Shown here one piece after another: positions 991-20,910 of a stretch of DNA of 22,409 bases. The stretch spans positions 1 to 22,409 of the forward strand of contig NW_021836889.1 in assembly GCF_006345805.1 (NCBI RefSeq), in the 5' to 3' direction. The translations under genes were made by a program, and so were the position numbers. Every line of letters begins with the position of its first letter. Position 1 is the first letter of the stretch. Below the pieces are notes generated by a model. It was not told where the DNA came from and did no database searches. It worked only from the letters and a program-made list of their open reading frames with translations. This DNA is from Octopus sinensis (Eukaryota).

Positions 991-1261
991 AATTATAGAA
1001 TCAGTAATAGAAACAGCCACAACCTCCACTAACATCACCCGTTTCCCTCTCTGTCATCACTCACATACGTCATCACTTATACCTGCAAACATAAACGCCA
1101 CTAATTACCTTGTCTCACTAACGTGCCATCATTCCATTGTCGTTAAATTTCACCTATGGCATCTACATGAGAAGCCAGAACATATATTATGTGTGTATAT
1201 ATATATATATAATATATATATATATATATTATATATATAAAAATAGGGACGGCAGGTCTAT

Positions 1262-1322
1262 GGGATTGCCGTAGGTTTCCCGTCCATAAAGGGTTTAGCA
1301 TGATGGCGTATCGTCAGATCCC
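1262..1322 (-). ncRNA. Degenerate inverted copy of the 1352-1412 hammerhead
   Basis: Minus strand reads GGGAU CUGACGA U ACGCCAUCAUG...GGACGG GAAA CC UAC GG CA AUCCC. U16.1 is changed to C and stem II has mismatches. Confidence 0.7.
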
Positions 1323-1351
1323 GAAAACCTGTTATGGGTCAACAAATTTTC

Positions 1352-1412
1352 GGGATCTGACGATACGCCATAAAGCTAAACACTTTATGGACGTGAAACC
1401 TGTGGTAATCCC
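1352..1412 (+). ncRNA. Type I hammerhead ribozyme, complete fold
   Basis: Stem I GGGAU/AUCCC; CUGACGA 1357-1363; extra U; stem II ACG-CCAUAAAG/CUUUAUGG-A-CGU; GAAA 1395-1398; stem III ACC/GGU with UGU loop; GUA cleavage triplet 1405-1407. Confidence 0.85.
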
Positions 1413-1664
1413 ATAAACCGGCCTTCCCCATTTTTAATATATACTGCTCTACATCTTAGAATGTCCTTCTTTCGGGTTTAGGCTTTCAACAAATGATATA
1501 TATATATATATATATACTATATATATATTTGTGTCGATAAATTACCTATTTCTCTGCTGATATACACACAAACCTACCTACCTACCTGCCTGCCTGCCTG
1601 CCTACCTACCTATAATTCTGAGTATTCCGAGCGTTACCTAATGTAATCCTGATTGTCCTTTGTA

Positions 1665-1767
1665 CACCCTGATGAGTTTCCATACAAGATATTTAAAGTG
1701 CAAAATTATATATTCATATATGTTTTGTAATTTTAATTTTGTCTGTGAAATGAAACAATAGTAGGTG
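1665..1767 (+). ncRNA. Type I hammerhead ribozyme with a very long stem II
   Basis: Stem I CACC/GGUG; CUGAUGA 1669-1675; stem II opens GUUUC/GAAAU and continues as an imperfect hairpin over 1676-1751; GAAA 1752-1755; stem III AC/GU with AAUA loop; GUA 1761-1763; AATAAA at 1784-1789. Confidence 0.75.
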
Positions 1768-1964
1768 AATATGTTGACTAATTAATAAATTAATTTGTAT
1801 CCATTAGATCTCTCCTTTTTCCAAGTCGATAATAATGTTCCATATATATATACATGTATACAAACATGAACACAAAAAAGCACGCACGCACATGGGACAT
1901 AGCTTTGCATAAGCAATATCTGTTTGTGTGTATACACGAAGGGGTCCTTCAGTTTTTCTAAGCC

Positions 1965-2460
1965 TTTAGCAGTATTCTTTGGATTATCATAGCCACTGTA
2001 TCAGTACTGCACTCTCTACAGCCATGTGTCTGCTGCACAAATTCAAATATTTCTTAAACCTTTCGACCCAGACTTTACTAGCCAAAATAGCTTCCATTTT
2101 TTTGTTTCATTTCAAGTTTCATTTTGCTTTTTATGCAAATCATCACATGAACATTTAGTTTTATTTTCAAAATTTACATCATGCTCATTGCCACATTGAG
2201 ATGTATTGGATCATCGATCCCTACACTAAGGAGCCGTTCCGTTTTAAGCATCACATAAGAGCTATGAAAAAATAAGATCCGAGCAGTTAACACAGAAGTC
2301 TTTTCGATCATTCGTTTTACATGACGTTGCAAAGTTTAATGCTTTAGCAACGTAGCTAATGTCATCCTCTGCATCAAATCTTTTTGAAATATCAAGTTTA
2401 ATACCCAGTATAATTCTTTTACTGTTCCTATTCACACTACTGCCTTCAGTTGCCCTTCAT
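1965..2460 (-). pseudogene. Tigger/pogo-family transposase relic (N-terminal CENP-B-type HTH domains)
   Basis: Manual minus-strand translation across stops and frameshifts: SKRIILGIKLDISKRFDAEDDISYVAKALNFATS, VMLKTERLLSVGIDD, LASKVWVERFKKYLNL...VESA. These match Tigger motifs (KLDIIKRFE, MERLLSVWIED, ASKGWFERFKKR...GESA). Confidence 0.8.
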
Positions 2461-3338
2461 GGCTACTTCCAGAGATTTTGAAATGTAGGTAAATCCAACG
2501 ACTGTGGTAATGAACAATTATCCACAATAAATATGTAGTAAAAGAAGAAGCACGGGGGAAAGAAGCGTTTGTGAACGCAAAGCATTATTGCTATAGCAGT
2601 AAGAACAGAAATGAGATGAAAGACTGAAGGAGTGAGATGGAAGGAAGTACTTATGATTACAGGTTGTTGAAAGGTTACCAAATTCATGGTACTTCTCGTC
2701 TTGCACTTTTAACTTGAGCCATAAAAATTACACACTCTACTCACACACACTCACTCACCGTTAGGCTTACTTCCAACATATGTAGCTACAGACATTGTAG
2801 CATGCTGATATTTTCATTGCTATTGCCTGTTGGTTATACAAAAGTTGGTAAGCTGGTGTCAGTGGTGCCTGGTGGTCTTATTGTTATTTTTTGGTTGTGA
2901 GAATGATGGTGATGATGATGGTGATGGTGATGGTGATGGTGATGGTGATGGCGGGTGTATTGATGGCAGTGGTAGGATCATATTCTTCTTATTTGTATTG
3001 CTGTAGCTGTTCAACCACAAGTCATTACTCGTTGACCTAAGACCAAGAATATTTCATTCAACTCCCGAAATACGATAGAATACTACATAGCTGCCTATCA
3101 CTATCTTTATTCTATTGACACCCTATTCTACGGTGTATTGAGTTGTAATACTGTTCTATACTCGTCTCTTATTATATTGTACACTATTCTACTTTAGCCA
3201 CAACCCCCACCATATTAGGATCTTTCCCACATGGCAATCAAGAAGATTCGAACGATATTAAAACATGTAGCAGTTCTGAGGTCTAAACACGTGGCTTACG
3301 GTATAAAACGAGGGGAGGGTGGATTCCTGTTGAAAGAA

Positions 3339-3467
3339 GGATGGATGGACGGATGGACGGATGGACGGATGGACGGATGGATGGATGGATGGATGAATGG
3401 ATGGATGGATGGATGGATGGATGGATAGATGGGTGGATGGATAGATAGATGGATAGATGGATGGATG
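3339..3467. repeat. (GGAT/GGAC)n tetranucleotide microsatellite
   Basis: Direct reading. Confidence 0.95.
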
Positions 3468-4075
3468 CTGAAGTCGGCAGAAAGCAATAAAATATCGTAC
3501 TTGTGTTTGTCTGAGTGTACTTATGCATATATATTTGTGTGAATGTGTGAGTGCGAATGAGGAGGAGAAGGGTGATGGCGACGGTGGTTATTTCAATCTC
3601 AGCTGTCCAATATCCATTATATAAATTGAATTGAATAGCAGCAGCGATGTCATGTGACAGTCATGTGACTATCTATTCGCTGGAACATTCTTTCCATCAG
3701 TGAAAGTCAGTGAAAAGTCAGAGAAAAATACTTGAAGAAAAGACAGAGATAGAAAAGGGGAAGAGCGAGAGGATAAGAAGAGAGAGAGTATGTGTATGTA
3801 TGTGTGTGTGTGTGTGTGGTGTGTGTGTGTGTGTGTGTGGTGTGTGTGTGTGAAAGGATGTGTGAGAAGGAGAGGAAGAAGAAAAAGAACTAGATAATCA
3901 GCAGAGTAGATAAGAAAAGAGAGGTACATCTTAGGAAGGATGGCGGGATTAGATATTGGGGGAGAGATTTGTTTAGAATAAATAGGGGAGATGGTGTCGA
4001 CGGTGGGGGCGGGGAGCGGAATAGATCGATTGTGATTATAATGAGTGAAGATGAGAGGATTAGGTTTAGGTGAGA

Positions 4076-4640
<565 letters not shown>

Positions 4641-4887
4641 AACGTGAAGGAGGAGAGCAATTAGGCCTGTCCAATGTATTAACTAATCTAAAAAAGAAAG
4701 AACTCAATACCTATCTAGAGCAAAAACTTGTTATGGAAGGTTGAATCTCCAAAGTCTCATAGTGACCAATAGTCAGTGGTTTCATCATATCTCTGGATTT
4801 ATCTGCCTGGATTTATCGAAGAGTGAAACAGTCCGACTATATTATCAATTATAGACATGCACAAATACATGAATCTCAATGTTTTGA

Positions 4888-5008
4888 TCTCTTTATCTTT
4901 CGCTTGTTTGGTCAATAGATAACGGCCATTCTGGGGCACCGCCATTAAAAATCTTGGTCGAATAAATTGGTCCGCATACTAGTTTTGCTTATATTTTAAA
5001 GGCTGGTA
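4888..5008 (-). mobile_element. SINE family 1 3' tail fragment
   Basis: cttgtttggtcaatagataacggccattctggggcaccgcc resembles cttgtttcagtcgtttgactgcggccatgctggagcaccgcc at 20362-20403. Confidence 0.65.
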
Positions 5009-5081
5009 ACCCATTAACACACACGCACACATATTTCTTTAAAAAAAACCTAAGTGGTGACCTTCAAATGTTCACCTCAGC

Positions 5082-5138
5082 CCTTCAAGACGATGCCCCA
5101 GCATTGCCGCAGTCAAATGACCGAAACTAGCAAAAATA
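5082..5138 (+). mobile_element. SINE family 1 3' tail fragment
   Basis: ccagcattgccgcagtcaaatgaccgaaactagcaaaa matches ccagcatggccgtagtcaaatgactgaaacaagtaaaa at 20221-20258. Confidence 0.7.
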
Positions 5139-5317
5139 CATACATATAAAAGATATATATGTGTGTGTATATGTATAAATACACACACACACACATATGT
5201 ATATATATAAACATATATATACATACAAGTGTATATATATATATATATATATATATCCATGACTTAAATATATATACATATATGCATATATATAAATATA
5301 TATACATACATATATAT

Positions 5318-5668
5318 TGATAGAAATGGCAAGACAACAAAAGAATGAAAGAGATCTCGATATTATGTAAATAGAGGAATTTATCTGTAAATATATGTGA
5401 CAATTATTCGGTAGCCATGATAAAACTCCGAGTTTCGGATGTCGGGACGGAAACCCACGCCGGCATCTCTTCAGTTATCGGGCCATCGACAAAAATGCTA
5501 TGAAAATGACCGTTAAAACAAAGCGAAATTGCTGTAATTTCCCTTTCTTTTAACGGTCATTTCCATAGAATTTTGAAGAGATGGGGACGTGGGCTTCCGC
5601 TCTGACATTCGAAACTCGGAGTTTTATCATGGCTACCGAATAACTGTCACATATTATATTCACAGATA
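5318..5668. mobile_element. Second palindromic hammerhead-bearing element between (TA)n tracts
   Basis: ~285-bp palindrome 5383-5668 centred near 5533; 34-nt perfect inverted match 5404-5437/5610-5643; ~65-bp unique tail 5318-5382; TA-rich microsatellites both sides. Confidence 0.7.
5419..5479 (-). ncRNA. Type I hammerhead ribozyme, complete fold
   Basis: Minus strand: GAUAA CUGAAGA GAUG...CAUC C GAAA CU CGG AG UU UUAUC. Stem I GAUAA/UUAUC extendable by UGGCC/GGCUA; stem III ACU/AGU; GUU triplet, predicted cut between 5424 and 5423. Confidence 0.8.
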
Positions 5669-6354
5669 TATATATATATATATATTTATGTATGTATGTT
5701 TATATATATATATGTATATGTATATGTATGTATGTATTATGTATGTAGTATGTATGTATGTATATCTCCATGACTTAATAAATATATAACGAAATTATCA
5801 TTATCAAACATTTCACCATACTGTTTCCATTCATATAATCTTCTTATTTGCGCTATCTTCACGTACAAACTATATCAGGTTACATTCGCTATATATCACG
5901 GCGATAGAACAGTACGGACCAAGTAGTGTGTGGGGTTTTGCGGTGGTAATAGTGGTATTTAAATGCGGTGCGATAGATATTTAATAGAATACATATATCT
6001 TTAGCCTTCATCTCTGTTATTCATCACATCTGCTTTACGTCTGCTACACGTTTACAACGTCTGCGCCTGCGCCCTGCGTCTCATATTCGTTACGATCGTC
6101 CCTACTTCACCAGCCTTCGCTTCTGTTCATGTTCTGTATCTTAATTATTTCTGTTAACCTCCTTGCGCGTTGTGCCACGATTAGATGGACTCTTGTTCCA
6201 ACATATGTTATGTTTGTATGTTTATATGCAAGCACACACACACACACACACACACACATATGTTTATGTAATTATATATGTGGTTATATGTATACATGCA
6301 CACGTACATGGTTGTAAAAATAACATACATACGAATATAAATATGTATATAATC

Positions 6355-8390: not shown

Positions 8391-8760
8391 ACGTTTGCAC
8401 GCTAGGCGAAATGTTGTCTGCCGCAAATTTCTGAGTTCAAATTCCGCCGAAGTCAACTTTGCCTTTCATCCTTTCGGGGTCGATAAATTAAGTACCAGTT
8501 ACGCACTGGGGTTGATGTAATCGACTTAATCTATGTGTCTGTCCTTGTTTGTCCCCTCTGTGTTTAGCCCCTTGTGGGTAGTAAAGAAATAGGTATTTCG
8601 TCTGTCTTTACGTTCTGAGTTCAAATTCAGCCGCGGTCGACTTTGCCTTCCATCCTTTTGGGGTCGACAAATTAAGTACCAGTTGTGCACTGGGGGTCAA
8701 TTTAATCGACTAGCCCACTCCCCAAAATTTCGGGCGTTGTGCCTAGAGCAGAAAAGAATA
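8391..8760 (+). mobile_element. tRNA-derived SINE family 2, two tandem body units (about 8391-8590 and 8592-8760)
   Basis: B-box-like gagttcaaattc followed by gccttycatccttt-ggggtcgayaaattaagtaccagtt (Meta-domain-like as recalled) occurs twice; other copies in the window. Confidence 0.85.
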
Positions 8761-9685: not shown

Positions 9686-9867
9686 AGCTTATCGGTATTT
9701 CGTCTGCCGCTACGTTCTGATTTCAAATTCCGCTGAGGTCGACTTTGCCTTTCATCCTTTCGAGGTCAATAAATTAAGTACTAGTTGCGTACTGGGTCGA
9801 TCTAATCGACTGCCCCCACTCCCTCCCCGAAAATTTCGGGCCTTGTGCCTAAAGTAGAAAAGAATAA
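9686..9867 (+). mobile_element. SINE family 2 copy
   Basis: ggtatttcgtctgccgctacgttctga...gcctttcatcctttcgaggtcaataaattaagta...aaatttcgggccttgtgccta matches 8592-8760. Confidence 0.85.
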
Positions 9868-10814
9868 TGACGATAATGATGATAGCGATGACGACGTCGA
9901 CGATGACGAAGACCTTGATGATGATGATGATGGAGGTGATGGTGATGGAAATTTCATTTCTTTGCTGCAGGGGAAAGGTCGGTTTACAATTTGGCAGTAT
10001 GGTAGGTGAAAGTAAAGAAGATGAAATGAGATAAAAGTATACAGAACATGTGATTACATCTATTACGCAGTCCTCTTGATACAGTAGAACCTTCAGATAG
10101 GGTCAAGGAAGGAACCCCGCACATCCAGAATCACCCTTGCCACTAAAGGCACGAACCCGCGCCCAAATATTGTTCCCCAATCTACAGAGGCATGCTTAGT
10201 GTAATTCCATTCACACTAAACACTTTTCCACAATTAGCAATCCTTTTACATATTCACTGGGAGAGAGAGAGAAAATATTTCCTTCTCCAGCTTCACTCAT
10301 TTCCAAGTGAAACATTACTAAAATGTGAACGAGGACTTGACCGAAGAGAAGGGTGTCTTTCGTCAATCCAGTCGGTCTTGTTCACTGCTCGTGCCCCTTT
10401 CACCATAGCCAGCAGACCAGTGGTTCTCGATAACTGTTTATAGTGAATAAATGCCTATATTTTCGTATAATTTCACATGTACCGTAACTAGCAAAGATGT
10501 CGTTTTTTTTTTTGCTCTGCAGTCGTGAGGTAAGCGTGTGCATAAACAAAGGAGTGCGCATGGGTCTCTGTGTGTATGAACAAAGGAGTACGCATGGGTA
10601 TCTGCATGTATAAACAGAAGTGCGCATGTGTGTGTGTGTATGTGTGTGTGTGTGTGTGTGTGTATACACTGTGTGTGTGCTCATAAACATATGAGTCACA
10701 GAAGGAGCGCTCTACATCATAGACTTACATACAGCTTCAGATTTGAATCTGGAGGATAAACAGCAACAGCAAAGTATGTAGAGAAGCGAATTGTAAATGA
10801 TAATGGCATGGACA

Positions 10815-13900: not shown

Positions 13901-14274
13901 TTCAGCCTAAGTGCCCGTGTTGTATACAGGTATTCAGAAATCACTGGACTGGTAATGTTATAGCGTTAGCTTGGGGCTCTGACGATTCGAGATAAACTCT
14001 ACAGATACAGACGTCCTATCAGACGGGAATGTTGAAATTCATGCACAGAGACGAAACTGCACTGAATGCATTCTTGCAGTGTGCAAACGCTGCTGACTTG
14101 TGGAGTTGTGTTTAGAACGAATCCGTCTATTATTGTAAGAATCGGCTCCCCACTTACCTCCACTAACGGCAAGAAAGGCGATGTTTTCTTGTCTAAAACT
14201 GTTGTTCTTAACGGAGTTCCCTGTGACCCTCGGCAGCGGTGGGATCCATAAAAGATTTTGTCATTAAACAGCAA

Positions 14275-14359
14275 GAAAAGACTCGCCCAAGGTGCCACAC
14301 ATTGGGACTGAATCCGGAACCATGTGGTTGGGGAAGCAAGCTTCTTACCACACAGCCAC
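14275..14359 (-). mobile_element. SINE family 1 5' head
   Basis: gcccaaggtgccac...gaaccatgtggttgg...cttaccacacagccac is the reverse complement of the head at 19857-19940. Confidence 0.85.
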
Positions 14360-14655
14360 ATGATCGAAGGAGTACAACGACCAATGCAAGCGGCCGAAAT
14401 GAGATTCCCTCACTAGAGTAACGCTAATCGACAGATTGCATAGCTTGGAGATCAGAGAGTATCTCCAAGCGAAGCCGCTAATTCTCTACATTGAGTGGTC
14501 ACAGCTCTAGTACTATAAACACAGGATTAGAATGGCGCAGGAGACCTAGGAGTAGACCAAGAATATGGCTGGATAATATCTTTAGTCTCAGTTAGTCACA
14601 CGTGGTAATCCAGAAGGAAAGCATAACAACGGTTGCATTCGACTGGAACTTAGGT
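14360..14655 (+). pseudogene. RTE-clade LINE ORF C-terminal relic
   Basis: Manual translation with shifts: MIEGVQRPMQAAEMRFP / RVTLIDRLHSLEIREYLQAKPLILYIEWSQL*YYKHRIRM / RPRSRPRIWLDNI. Matches RTE motifs QAAEMRFLR, IERSQLRWFGHxxRM and RPRGRPRxRW. Confidence 0.85.
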
Positions 14656-16254: not shown

Positions 16255-16285
<31 letters not shown>

Positions 16286-16377
16286 TAATCCAAACGGGAA
16301 AACAGAAAAAACAACAACACGTGGAACAATTACAGTATTATATTATTAGGCGCTCAGGAAAATGGAGAAGGAGGAGG

Positions 16378-16412
16378 GTATGACGTTTCGAGCGGAGCTC
16401 TTCGTCGGAAAC
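16378..16412 (-). ncRNA. Minimal/degenerate type I hammerhead motif in a ~220-bp element (16282-16500) between TA-rich microsatellites
   Basis: Minus strand GUUU CCGACGA A GAGC UCC GCUC GAAA CG UC AUAC: U4 changed to C, perfect 4-bp stem II, palindromic ACGU in place of stem III, stem I 3/4 paired. Confidence 0.55.
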
Positions 16413-16811: not shown

Positions 16812-17262
16812 ATGACACAATTCACACCGCCACACATTTGGAAATGACATGCTCTCCTGTTTGACATTTCGCGCCGGAAGCTTTAATACGAACGTTTCAG
16901 AGTGTACTGAGAGGGATAAGAATCAAGCATCCAGTCAACATCATGGTGTTTGGAGTGACCACTAGTGATTGCGACGTTATGCCTCCATTCATTTTCCCAC
17001 ACGGCCTCAGACTCAACACGGAGTCCTACATCAAGTGCCTGGAGGAGGTAGTGCTTCCTTGGGTCAAGAGGCTGGCTACTGGGTGACTGCCCTATGTCTG
17101 GCAAAACGACTCTGCGCCATGCCACACAAGCAGGAGAACTGACTCATGGCTGTCAGACAATTTCTGCGACCACCATCACCCCTAACAACTAGCCACTTAA
17201 CTCCCCCAGACTGCAACCCTCTTGGTTATTATGTGCAGGACGCAGCTGATCGAGAGACCAAG
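16812..17262 (+). pseudogene. Internally deleted Tc1/mariner-superfamily (maT/DD37D-like) transposase relic
   Basis: 16916 onward: IKHPVNIMVFGVTTSDCDVMPPFIFPHGLRLNTESYIKCLEEVVLPWVKRLATG*LPYVWQNDSAPCHTSRRTDSWLSDNFCDH, then frameshifted PLNSP/DCNPLGYYV. Putative N-terminus MTQFTPPHIWK*HALL from ATG 16812. Confidence 0.85.
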
Positions 17263-19847: not shown

Positions 19848-20024
19848 GGCGCAGGAGTGGCTGTGTGGTAAGTAGCTTGTTTACCAACCACATGGTTCGG
19901 GGGTTCATTCCCACTGCGTGGCACCTTGGGCGAGTGTCTTCTACTATAGCTTCGGGCCAATCAAAGCTTTGTGAGTGGATTTGGTAGACGGAAACTGAAA
20001 GAAGCCCGTCGTATATATGTAAGT

Positions 20025-20059
<35 letters not shown>

Positions 20060-20273
20060 TGTTGTGTCTGTGGTTTGTCCCCCTAGCATTGCTTGACAAC
20101 CGATGCTGGTGTGTTATGTCCCCGTACCTAGCGGTTCGGCAAAAGAGACCGATAGAATAAGTACTGGGCTTACAAAAAGAATAAGTTCCGGGGTCGAGTT
20201 GCTCGATTAAAGGCGGTGCACCAGCATGGCCGTAGTCAAATGACTGAAACAAGTAAAAGAGTAAAAGAGAGAG
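19848..20273 (+). mobile_element. Full-length tRNA-derived SINE family 1 (CORE-like)
   Basis: A-box tggctgtgtgg, B-box-like ggttcattccc, CORE-like gcaccttgggcgagtg, internal (TA)n, repeated agtaaaag tail. Confidence 0.9.
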
Positions 20274-20331: not shown

Positions 20332-20541
20332 CTACTCTTTCTACGCTTTTTTACTCTTTTACTTGTTTCAGTCGTTTGACTGCGGCCATGCTGGAGCACC
20401 GCCTTTTTTTAGTCGAGCAAATCGCCCCATACACCCCCCCCCCATGACTTATTCTTTGTAAGCCTAGTACTTATTCTATCGGTCAGTCTTTCGCCGAACC
20501 GATAAGCACACCAGCATCGGTTGTCAAGCGATGTTGGGGGA

Positions 20542-20583
<42 letters not shown>

Positions 20584-20910
20584 CATATAAATTAGAAAAA
20601 ACAACCTTTTATCAATTCAACAATGAAATAATTAAATTATACCATATAGAGAAAAATTACATCCTATAGAAAAAATTAAATATAAAATATAAAACATATA
20701 CCCATGATTAAGTAATGTGCAAAATAATAAATAAAGCGTATTTATATACGACGGGCTTCTTTCAGTTTCCGTCTACCAAATCCACTCACAAGGCCTTGGT
20801 CGGCCCGAGACTATAGTAGAAACACTTGCCTAAGGTGCCACGCATTGAGACTGAACCTGGAACCATGTGGTTGGTAAGCAAGCTACTTGCCACACAACCA
20901 CTCCTACGCC
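20332..20910 (-). mobile_element. Full-length SINE family 1, inverted relative to 19848-20273, with an insertion in its internal microsatellite
   Basis: Reverse complement aligns over head, body and tail to the + copy; extra AT-rich block at ~20589-20745. Confidence 0.9.

Follow-up and report, generated by a model that had tools for sequence, protein, structure and literature searches.

Organization of the locus

The analyzed window, the whole stretch of 22,409 nucleotides of the Octopus sinensis contig NW_021836889.1, consists of microsatellite-rich, animal-type DNA without a convincing gene, and no RT or GIY-YIG gene was found in it. A type I hammerhead motif is located on the minus strand and belongs to the left arm (5382-5535) of an inverted, head-to-head duplication of about 350 bases, which lies between two (TA)n tracts. 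The features of the locus are listed in Table 1. The right arm contains an inverted sister copy of the motif (5574-5640), in which the 5′ strand of helix I and C3 are gone due to a 19-nt deletion between positions 5573 and 5574. The arms abut with a 2-nt overlap at 5534-5535, their 5′ ends differ by 3 nt, and a loose end behind 5517 in the mapped contigs represents the continuation of the family. The 3′ ends of both arms face outward into (TA)n. The sister copy and the repeat context are absent from an earlier account made from the letters of this DNA (hereafter the sequence-only reading), which had described a complete hammerhead with an extendable stem I.

Table 1. Features of the hammerhead-bearing locus (positions in the window).
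Feature	Position	Strand	Basis
(TA)n-rich left flank	5195..5317	.	repeat analysis
One-sided 3′ extension ("tail") of 64 nt, left arm only	5318..5381	-	mapped contigs; belongs to the family
Left arm: 3′ end of the repeat family, 5′-truncated	5382..5535	-	alignment and mapped contigs
Type I hammerhead	5419..5479	-	core scan, pairing; core free of variants ≥ 8% in four runs
Extended helix I, 5490-5480 with 5417-5407	5407..5490	-	pairing and variants; support from one-sided changes only
Helix II: 4 bp, 1x1 loop, 3 bp, 1x1 loop, 4 bp, tetraloop; extra C at the 3′ base	5437..5467	-	folding
Helix III: 9-nt near-palindrome, unpaired centre 5429	5425..5433	-	folding and by-eye comparison with File S2 of PMC8557442
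Head-to-head junction	5526..5540	.	junction alignment
Right arm: inverted copy, 18 of 137 aligned bases mismatched	5534..5668	+	arm alignment
Intact substrate half: GAAA, helix III, cut site, helix I 3′ strand	5611..5640	+	identity with 5436-5407 (minus), 30/30
(TA)n-rich right flank	5666..5765	.	repeat analysis

A target-site duplication abutting the element was not found. A 12-nt word occurs once in each flank (5256-5267 and 5767-5778), its 11-nt core being present nowhere else in the window, and this word may remain from a long target duplication that microsatellite slippage has blurred.

Some further signals were noted on the minus strand. Just 5′ of extended helix I, a branch-point-like pentamer precedes a pyrimidine-rich AG whose end is at 5498 (5516-5498), and another pyrimidine-rich AG is found at 5385 (5391-5385). 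In Penelope of Drosophila virilis, an intron ends where helix I starts (PMC4209133, in the part available). An AUG located at the helix II base starts a frame of 20 codons (5466-5404), which stops before the tail; the ORF start of Anolis Poseidon is placed likewise relative to its hammerhead, as described in the accessible part of PMC11167929. By eye, 14 nt around the first core half (5479-5466) also occur where the Naiad_Obim and Naiad_Ovul frames begin (supplement of PMC8557442); no further likeness was seen, and the match may be due to chance.

The hammerhead core and its cut site

Positions 5479-5419 of the minus strand contain a GUU triplet with a predicted cut between 5424 and 5423. Helix I is formed by GAUAA (5479-5475) and UUAUC (5423-5419), all five pairs being Watson-Crick pairs, and the conserved strand CUGAAGA (5474-5468) begins with C3 at 5474. 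The base of helix II had been drawn in the sequence-only reading as GAUG (5467-5464) paired with CAUC (5441-5438), followed by C5437; then come GAAA (5436-5433) and CU-CGG-AG, with U16.1 at 5425 and U17 at 5424. All 13 core letters (C3 U4 G5 A6 N7 G8 A9, G12 A13 A14 A15, and U16 H17) are present in 5419..5479. For core letters and adjacent pairs, the criteria were taken from the available part of PMC3088659. Among the pairs flanking the core, A5475-U5423 and A5433-U5425 form, and G5467-C5437 can form only if C5438 bulges; pairs adjacent to the core (1.1-2.1, 10.1-11.1, and 15.1-16.1) are thereby available in all three helices. The register with G5467-C5437 and the bulged C5438 agrees with the adjacent-pair rule of PMC3088659 and costs 3.4 kcal/mol in the folding model.

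A strict core scan of the 22.4-kb window gave this motif as its single match, and any comparable core was obtained in one of 200 block-wise dinucleotide shuffles. With Rfam, no hammerhead was matched at the gathering threshold in the whole window or at E values up to 10 in 1100-5800; the microRNA matches that appeared scored far under gathering and were discarded as hairpin artefacts. The folding energy of the motif was the same as that of the shuffles (z 0.03), indicating that the signal lies in the core motif and not in stability. At the level of sequence, the hammerhead motif at 5419..5479 is real. Its letters, pairing, and cut site were as given in the sequence-only reading, and the view that its helices are unrelated to those of the motifs at 1.4 and 1.7 kb was borne out by BLAST, which found no similarity. 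The word "complete" used there holds for the core letters, whereas the likely activity appears overstated, as a monomeric fold is disfavored in the models described below. GUU is a slower cleavage triplet than GUC.

Secondary structure and predicted dimer formation

Helix I can be extended past a 1x2 loop by pairing of UGGCC (5485-5481) with GGCUA (5416-5412) on the minus strand, which involves four Watson-Crick pairs and one G-U pair. With the majority letters of the family, the extended helix reaches up to about 15 bp, with A5418 bulged and one A-C mismatch. At position 5480, G or A (RNA strand) makes up 76-83% of the depth of related copies in four runs, and both letters pair with U5417. 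The 1x2 loop of the window copy therefore reduces to the single bulged A5418 in the family, where the sixth helix I step keeps its bulged A. A variant at 5489 breaks its pair in 40-46% of the depth in three runs. Thus, the stem I extension noticed in the sequence-only reading is a family feature, whereas the internal loop is largely a change of the window copy itself.

The docking of stem I onto loop II invoked in the same reading was not supported, because helix II is an interrupted 11-bp arm with a tetraloop and not a canonical 4-bp helix with a short docking loop. Its pair probabilities were 0.07-0.39 in a fold of 5405-5492, and variants at 5447, 5448, and 5462 in related copies preserve or improve its pairs. 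According to the accessible parts of the literature, canonical docking is defined by a helix I of 6 bp and a helix II of 4 bp with conserved loop-loop contacts (PMC4209133), and the hammerheads of Penelope-like elements (PLEs) are usually without contacts between stem I and loop II (PMC6155905). Instead of this canonical monomeric type I form (Schistosoma type), the motif has a helix I of 5 bp followed by a bulge, together with the interrupted helix II. For helix III, the hairpin is unstable (+2.1 kcal/mol) and the intermolecular duplex is stable (-9.7 kcal/mol); the centre of loop III, 5429, is variable in 10-15% and also lies within a CpG.

In folds of the monomer (5405-5492), helix I and its extension had probabilities of 0.39-0.98, helix III had a probability of 0.01, and that of a core-compatible fold was about 2e-4. 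Adding upstream sequence lowered the helix I probability to 0.01. The active-type dimer reached -52.3 kcal/mol compared to -38.4 kcal/mol for two monomers, and -45.5 compared to -31.6 kcal/mol in the other helix II register, i.e., the advantage of the dimer over two active-type monomers was 14 kcal/mol in either register. The cofold minimum (-62.3 kcal/mol) is a non-hammerhead dimer, and the active dimer is thus not the global minimum. A natural heterodimer of left and right arm was also considered and dismissed, its cofold minimum not being a hammerhead. A transcript across both arms forms one long hairpin (-189.5 kcal/mol), in which opening of the hammerhead costs 67 kcal/mol. All these figures are nearest-neighbour estimates of secondary structure, which include neither tertiary contacts nor proteins.

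From these models, the ribozyme of the family is predicted to cut as a dimer through its palindromic helix III. The estimates agree with the weak monomer and partial dimer cleavage of metazoan PLE hammerheads, which are reported in the parts available of PMC4209133 and PMC6765202 to cleave poorly alone and somewhat as dimers; one PLE hammerhead requires the protein of its element and is dispensable for insertion in vitro (PMC11167929, in part). Even for a genuine dimer-type ribozyme family, little or no cleavage is predicted in a monomer assay, so that a lack of monomer cleavage would not refute a ribozyme.

Copies of the repeat and their variants

Part of the stretch was present in 20 of the 24 listed runs, and half or more of its words were present in none; none of the 20 is registered as an RNA run. 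At 80% likeness, 8,590, 7,928, 3,612, and 1,149 contigs from four runs and three organisms were mapped, none of which spans the whole locus. The motif-bearing sequence is a high-copy repeat family. It extends upstream of 5535 past the visible sequence, and its 3′ ends are staggered, with loose ends near 5333, 5382, and 5393 that run into AT-rich DNA and not back into the element.

The joints listed between parts of the element included 21 distinct ones (75 + 26 further rows exist). Of these 21, 13 lead from left to right arm without a change of strand, i.e., they are head-to-head junctions at other breakpoints, which indicates that the inversion was made afresh in different copies. Four joints change strand and four are skips within the left arm. 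One listed joint, from 5473 to 5535, is ambiguous and may represent a partial tandem. Of the 13 left-arm ends in the listed joints, four are at 5485-5489, where extended helix I has its upstream edge and where alignments may be broken by the window copy's own letters at 5489-5490. The use of cut RNA as template was considered and set aside, as none of 26 arm ends lay within 2 nt of 5423 in this small and biased sample of listed joints. In run X1, positions 5412-5423 were covered to a depth of about 2.0 million, 5448-5483 to 0.37 million, and 5508-5519 to 0.08 million, a gradient expected from 5′ truncation; depth cannot rank the parts and carries no evidential weight here.

Among 30 variants of at least 8%, the 19 at 5403-5490 were used, and six in the tail and five in the right arm were left out. 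Such variants affected none of the 13 core positions compared to 17 of the 75 other positions in 5405-5492 (one-sided Fisher p 0.048). At paired sites, the pair was kept or gained in 8 of 12 variants (p 0.0007 against random changes, p 0.23 against transitions), two of the pairs in this test having been picked after the variants were seen. Two-sided (compensatory) changes were not readable in the variant table. The variants lend modest support to the proposed pairing. At positions 5447, 5463, 5480, and 5490, the window copy departs from the family majority.

Further motifs in the window

A second head-to-head hammerhead pair with TA-rich flanks is present at 1246-1435 and shares the two-arm layout of the 5318-5668 locus. 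Its C3 residues lie at 1317 (minus) and 1357 (plus), and the two copies differ at 17 of 101 aligned bases. In the plus copy, a U-U sits at the helix II base and helix III is 9 nt long, resembling Hydra-clade motifs; the minus copy has a C at 16.1 and looks decayed. At 1669-1763 (plus), a hammerhead core with an AT-rich helix II region of about 70 nt and a 1-bp helix III was seen, which has no relation to either of the other families. The fourth core, minimal and hammerhead-like, at about 16280-16410 (minus), escapes scans demanding 3 bp of helix I; it has a weak helix I, a helix II of 4 bp, and a C in position 4, and it ends at a (TA)n tract about 90 nt downstream. The short interspersed repeats at 19850-20250, 20350-20910, 8420-8760, 9700-9870, and 14270-14360 are presumably octopus SINE families, and 16880-17260 resembles by eye a decayed fragment of a Tc1/mariner transposase.

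Origin of the repeat

We consider it likely that the motif is a type I hammerhead in a head-to-head insertion, the repeat being the 5′-truncated 3′ end of an endonuclease-bearing (EN+) PLE, probably of the Hydra clade, with a ribozyme that is predicted to cut as a dimer. According to the available parts of PMC8557442 and PMC3846280, EN+ PLE insertions show an inverted 5′-truncated copy, a one-sided tail, and (TA)n or microsatellite targets; the tail is defined by internal RT starts (PMC11167929, in part). At the locus, a 5′-truncated inverted copy is joined head to head, and there are a tail on one arm (49-64 nt compared to the usual 30-40 bp) and staggered 3′ ends. Partial-tandem direct repeats (pLTRs), another trait of PLEs, were not found at the locus, and the joint from 5473 to 5535 is ambiguous in this respect. 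The short palindromic helix III near the 3′ end corresponds to that of PLE hammerheads as characterized in PMC4209133 and PMC6765202 (parts available). The clade and the parent element are what we infer from such likenesses. Insertion into (TA)n and a 9-nt palindromic helix III are typical, not defining, traits of the Hydra clade, whose definition rests on RT phylogeny and modified endonuclease motifs, and on sequence grounds, from a comparison of helix III with Hydra-clade rows, the chances for this clade appear about even. EN+ PLEs carry an ORF for a telomerase-like RT with a GIY-YIG endonuclease, and the searches linked no such frame to the repeat. The protein search with the 43-residue open frame 5535-5407 yielded one candidate, and none at E values up to 1. 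Pattern scans found no relatives in metagenome contigs (two patterns) or in viral contigs; 17 matches in prokaryote genomes were rejected as chance, with alignments of 17-29 nt and the upstream core half in none of the 17.

For the insertion, the following course is proposed. The RT-endonuclease of the parent element would nick a (TA)n tract, and reverse transcription would be primed internally, 30-105 nt 3′ of the ribozyme, giving the staggered 3′ ends and the one-sided tail. Synthesis would halt once about 150-220 nt had been copied, and the mirror arm would arise at 5533-5535 by fold-back or template switch. In transcripts of the parent, two hammerheads would pair via the palindromic helix III and cut after GUU. 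The genomic copy at 5318-5668 itself is probably inert in view of the family drift at four ribozyme or flank positions, the sister arm without C3, and the read-through hairpin that hides the motif.

Alternatively, the repeat might be a dispersed short non-autonomous hammerhead element, i.e., a non-LTR retrozyme or Sm-alpha-like SINE that borrows PLE enzymes, has no coding parent, and maybe forms a small circular RNA. Such an origin would account for the very high copy number, the missing coding link in the protein search, and the 1,149 contigs in a run guessed to be RNA. Moreover, in the accessible parts of the literature, it is argued that animal retrozymes, which often occur as monomers, arose from the terminal repeats of PLEs (10.64898/2026.07.22.740005), and a mussel family is without the usual tertiary contacts (PMC7229834). 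However, non-LTR retrozymes are described as tandem units of 150-450 bp, each with a hammerhead (PMC7229834; 10.64898/2026.07.22.740005), and at the 5318-5668 locus no tandem unit was found. Among the 21 joints listed, none was labelled as going back, the one from 5473 to 5535 being a possible partial tandem. In addition, the 3′ loose ends enter AT-rich DNA, the family reaches farther upstream than 5535, neither an A nor a B box was found in 5316-5535, and no tRNA was detected. We therefore judge this origin to be rather unlikely. Near-perfect inverted arms within TA-rich DNA would also fit a 290-bp palindrome of a MITE or fold-back DNA transposon with an incidental hammerhead, but a variable junction between copies (13 different points among the joints listed), the one-sided tail, the staggered 3′ ends, and the core as the least variable part leave this explanation hardly any credibility.

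It is also very improbable that the motif is an autonomous monomer with a helix I bulge docked on helix II that cuts the host transcript at the locus, as implied by the sequence-only reading. In models of the isolated monomer, helix III and a core-compatible fold are almost never formed, helix I is nearly lost when upstream sequence is added, and in read-through RNA the mirror arm would have to be opened at the cost given above; the four positions off the family majority look like drift. These arguments are set against the 13 of 13 core letters, the probability of 0.39-0.98 for helix I with its extension in 5405-5492, and the bulged A retained in the family, and nearest-neighbour folding is blind to the tertiary contacts on which such a monomer would rely.

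Besides the preferred origin as a PLE end, a trans-cutting network can be envisaged, in which the few copies with the catalytic half would bind and cut host transcripts carrying only the 3′ substrate half via a helix I of up to 15 bp and the 8-bp palindromic helix III. The substrate half is all that many truncated copies retain, e.g., the right arm with its 30 of 30 identical positions. We regard this as a very long shot; if true, the repeat load would be tied to RNA turnover, and the repeats would encode an RNA cutting network. With its thousands of copies, variable inversion points, and staggered ends, the family is good material for studying the template (cut versus uncut RNA) and the origin of mirror arms.

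Comparison with known systems

The following comparisons refer to the parts of the cited papers and supplements that were available. With Hydra-clade PLEs (PMC8557442), the repeat shares a type I motif near the 3′ end, the GUU triplet, an irregular helix II base, an element end about 30-45 nt past the cut, and (TA)n targets, which are preferred by nearly all families of File S1. The nine letters of helix III are identical by eye to those of Hydra-2_aMil and Penelope-16_HM, and a long bulged helix I is also found in Hydra-1_cRog. File S2 contains 26 Hydra-clade rows, with one element entered twice; by eye, 20 of these have a 9-nt helix III, five the same eight paired letters, two all nine letters, and 10 the GUU triplet. 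In contrast, the helix II of the repeat is longer and twice interrupted, and the repeat is by eye none of the listed families. No RT or endonuclease was linked to it, so that the clade is assigned by resemblance only. The octopus Hydra family on record, Hydra-1_Obim, shares 13 nt at the first core half with the window family, but the 3′ ends otherwise differ by eye, which suggests that the window repeat is another family.

The metazoan PLE hammerheads described by Cervera and de la Pena (2014; PMC4209133), which are minimal or have a small helix III, can occur as pairs on opposite strands, 100-700 bp apart, with a long helix II, a helix I of 4-5 bp, and a palindromic helix III. The locus resembles them in its 5-bp helix I core, long helix II, and palindromic helix III as well as in the opposite-strand pairing, the mostly truncated copies, and the predicted action as a dimer. 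It differs in that the extra base is on the 3′ side of helix II and not between 9 and 10.1, and in that helix I can be extended to about 15 bp. PLE insertions (Arkhipova et al., 2013, PMC3846280; Frangieh et al., 2024, PMC11167929) have the same head-to-head arms with a junction palindrome, the one-arm tail, the staggered 3′ ends, and the AT-rich target. Unlike these, the window copy has a tail of 49-64 nt instead of about 31 nt, no abutting target-site duplication, and about 200 nt of element. With non-LTR retrozymes and Schistosoma Sm-alpha (PMC7229834, PMC6155905), the family has in common that it is a high-copy animal repeat with a type I hammerhead, whereas the window copy is not tandem, its helix II is not of the 4-bp docking type, and its visible part contains no Pol III boxes.

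PLEs are abundant in Octopus vulgaris (PMC13282606, PMC8967140), where they make up 6.83% of the genome in 190 families (PMC13282606). The window family was not found in the literature on octopus hammerheads and octopus Penelope or in the available supplements of PMC8557442, PMC4209133 (except file 1), and PMC13282606, and it may be catalogued in Repbase or Dfam. A very high-copy hammerhead family combining an unusually long bulged helix I with a long helix II is apparently unlisted. The function of PLE hammerheads is still considered open (PMC8557442, PMC11167929). Both this kind of PLE hammerhead and the palindromic insertion layout are known already, and the locus is most likely one more fossil PLE end.
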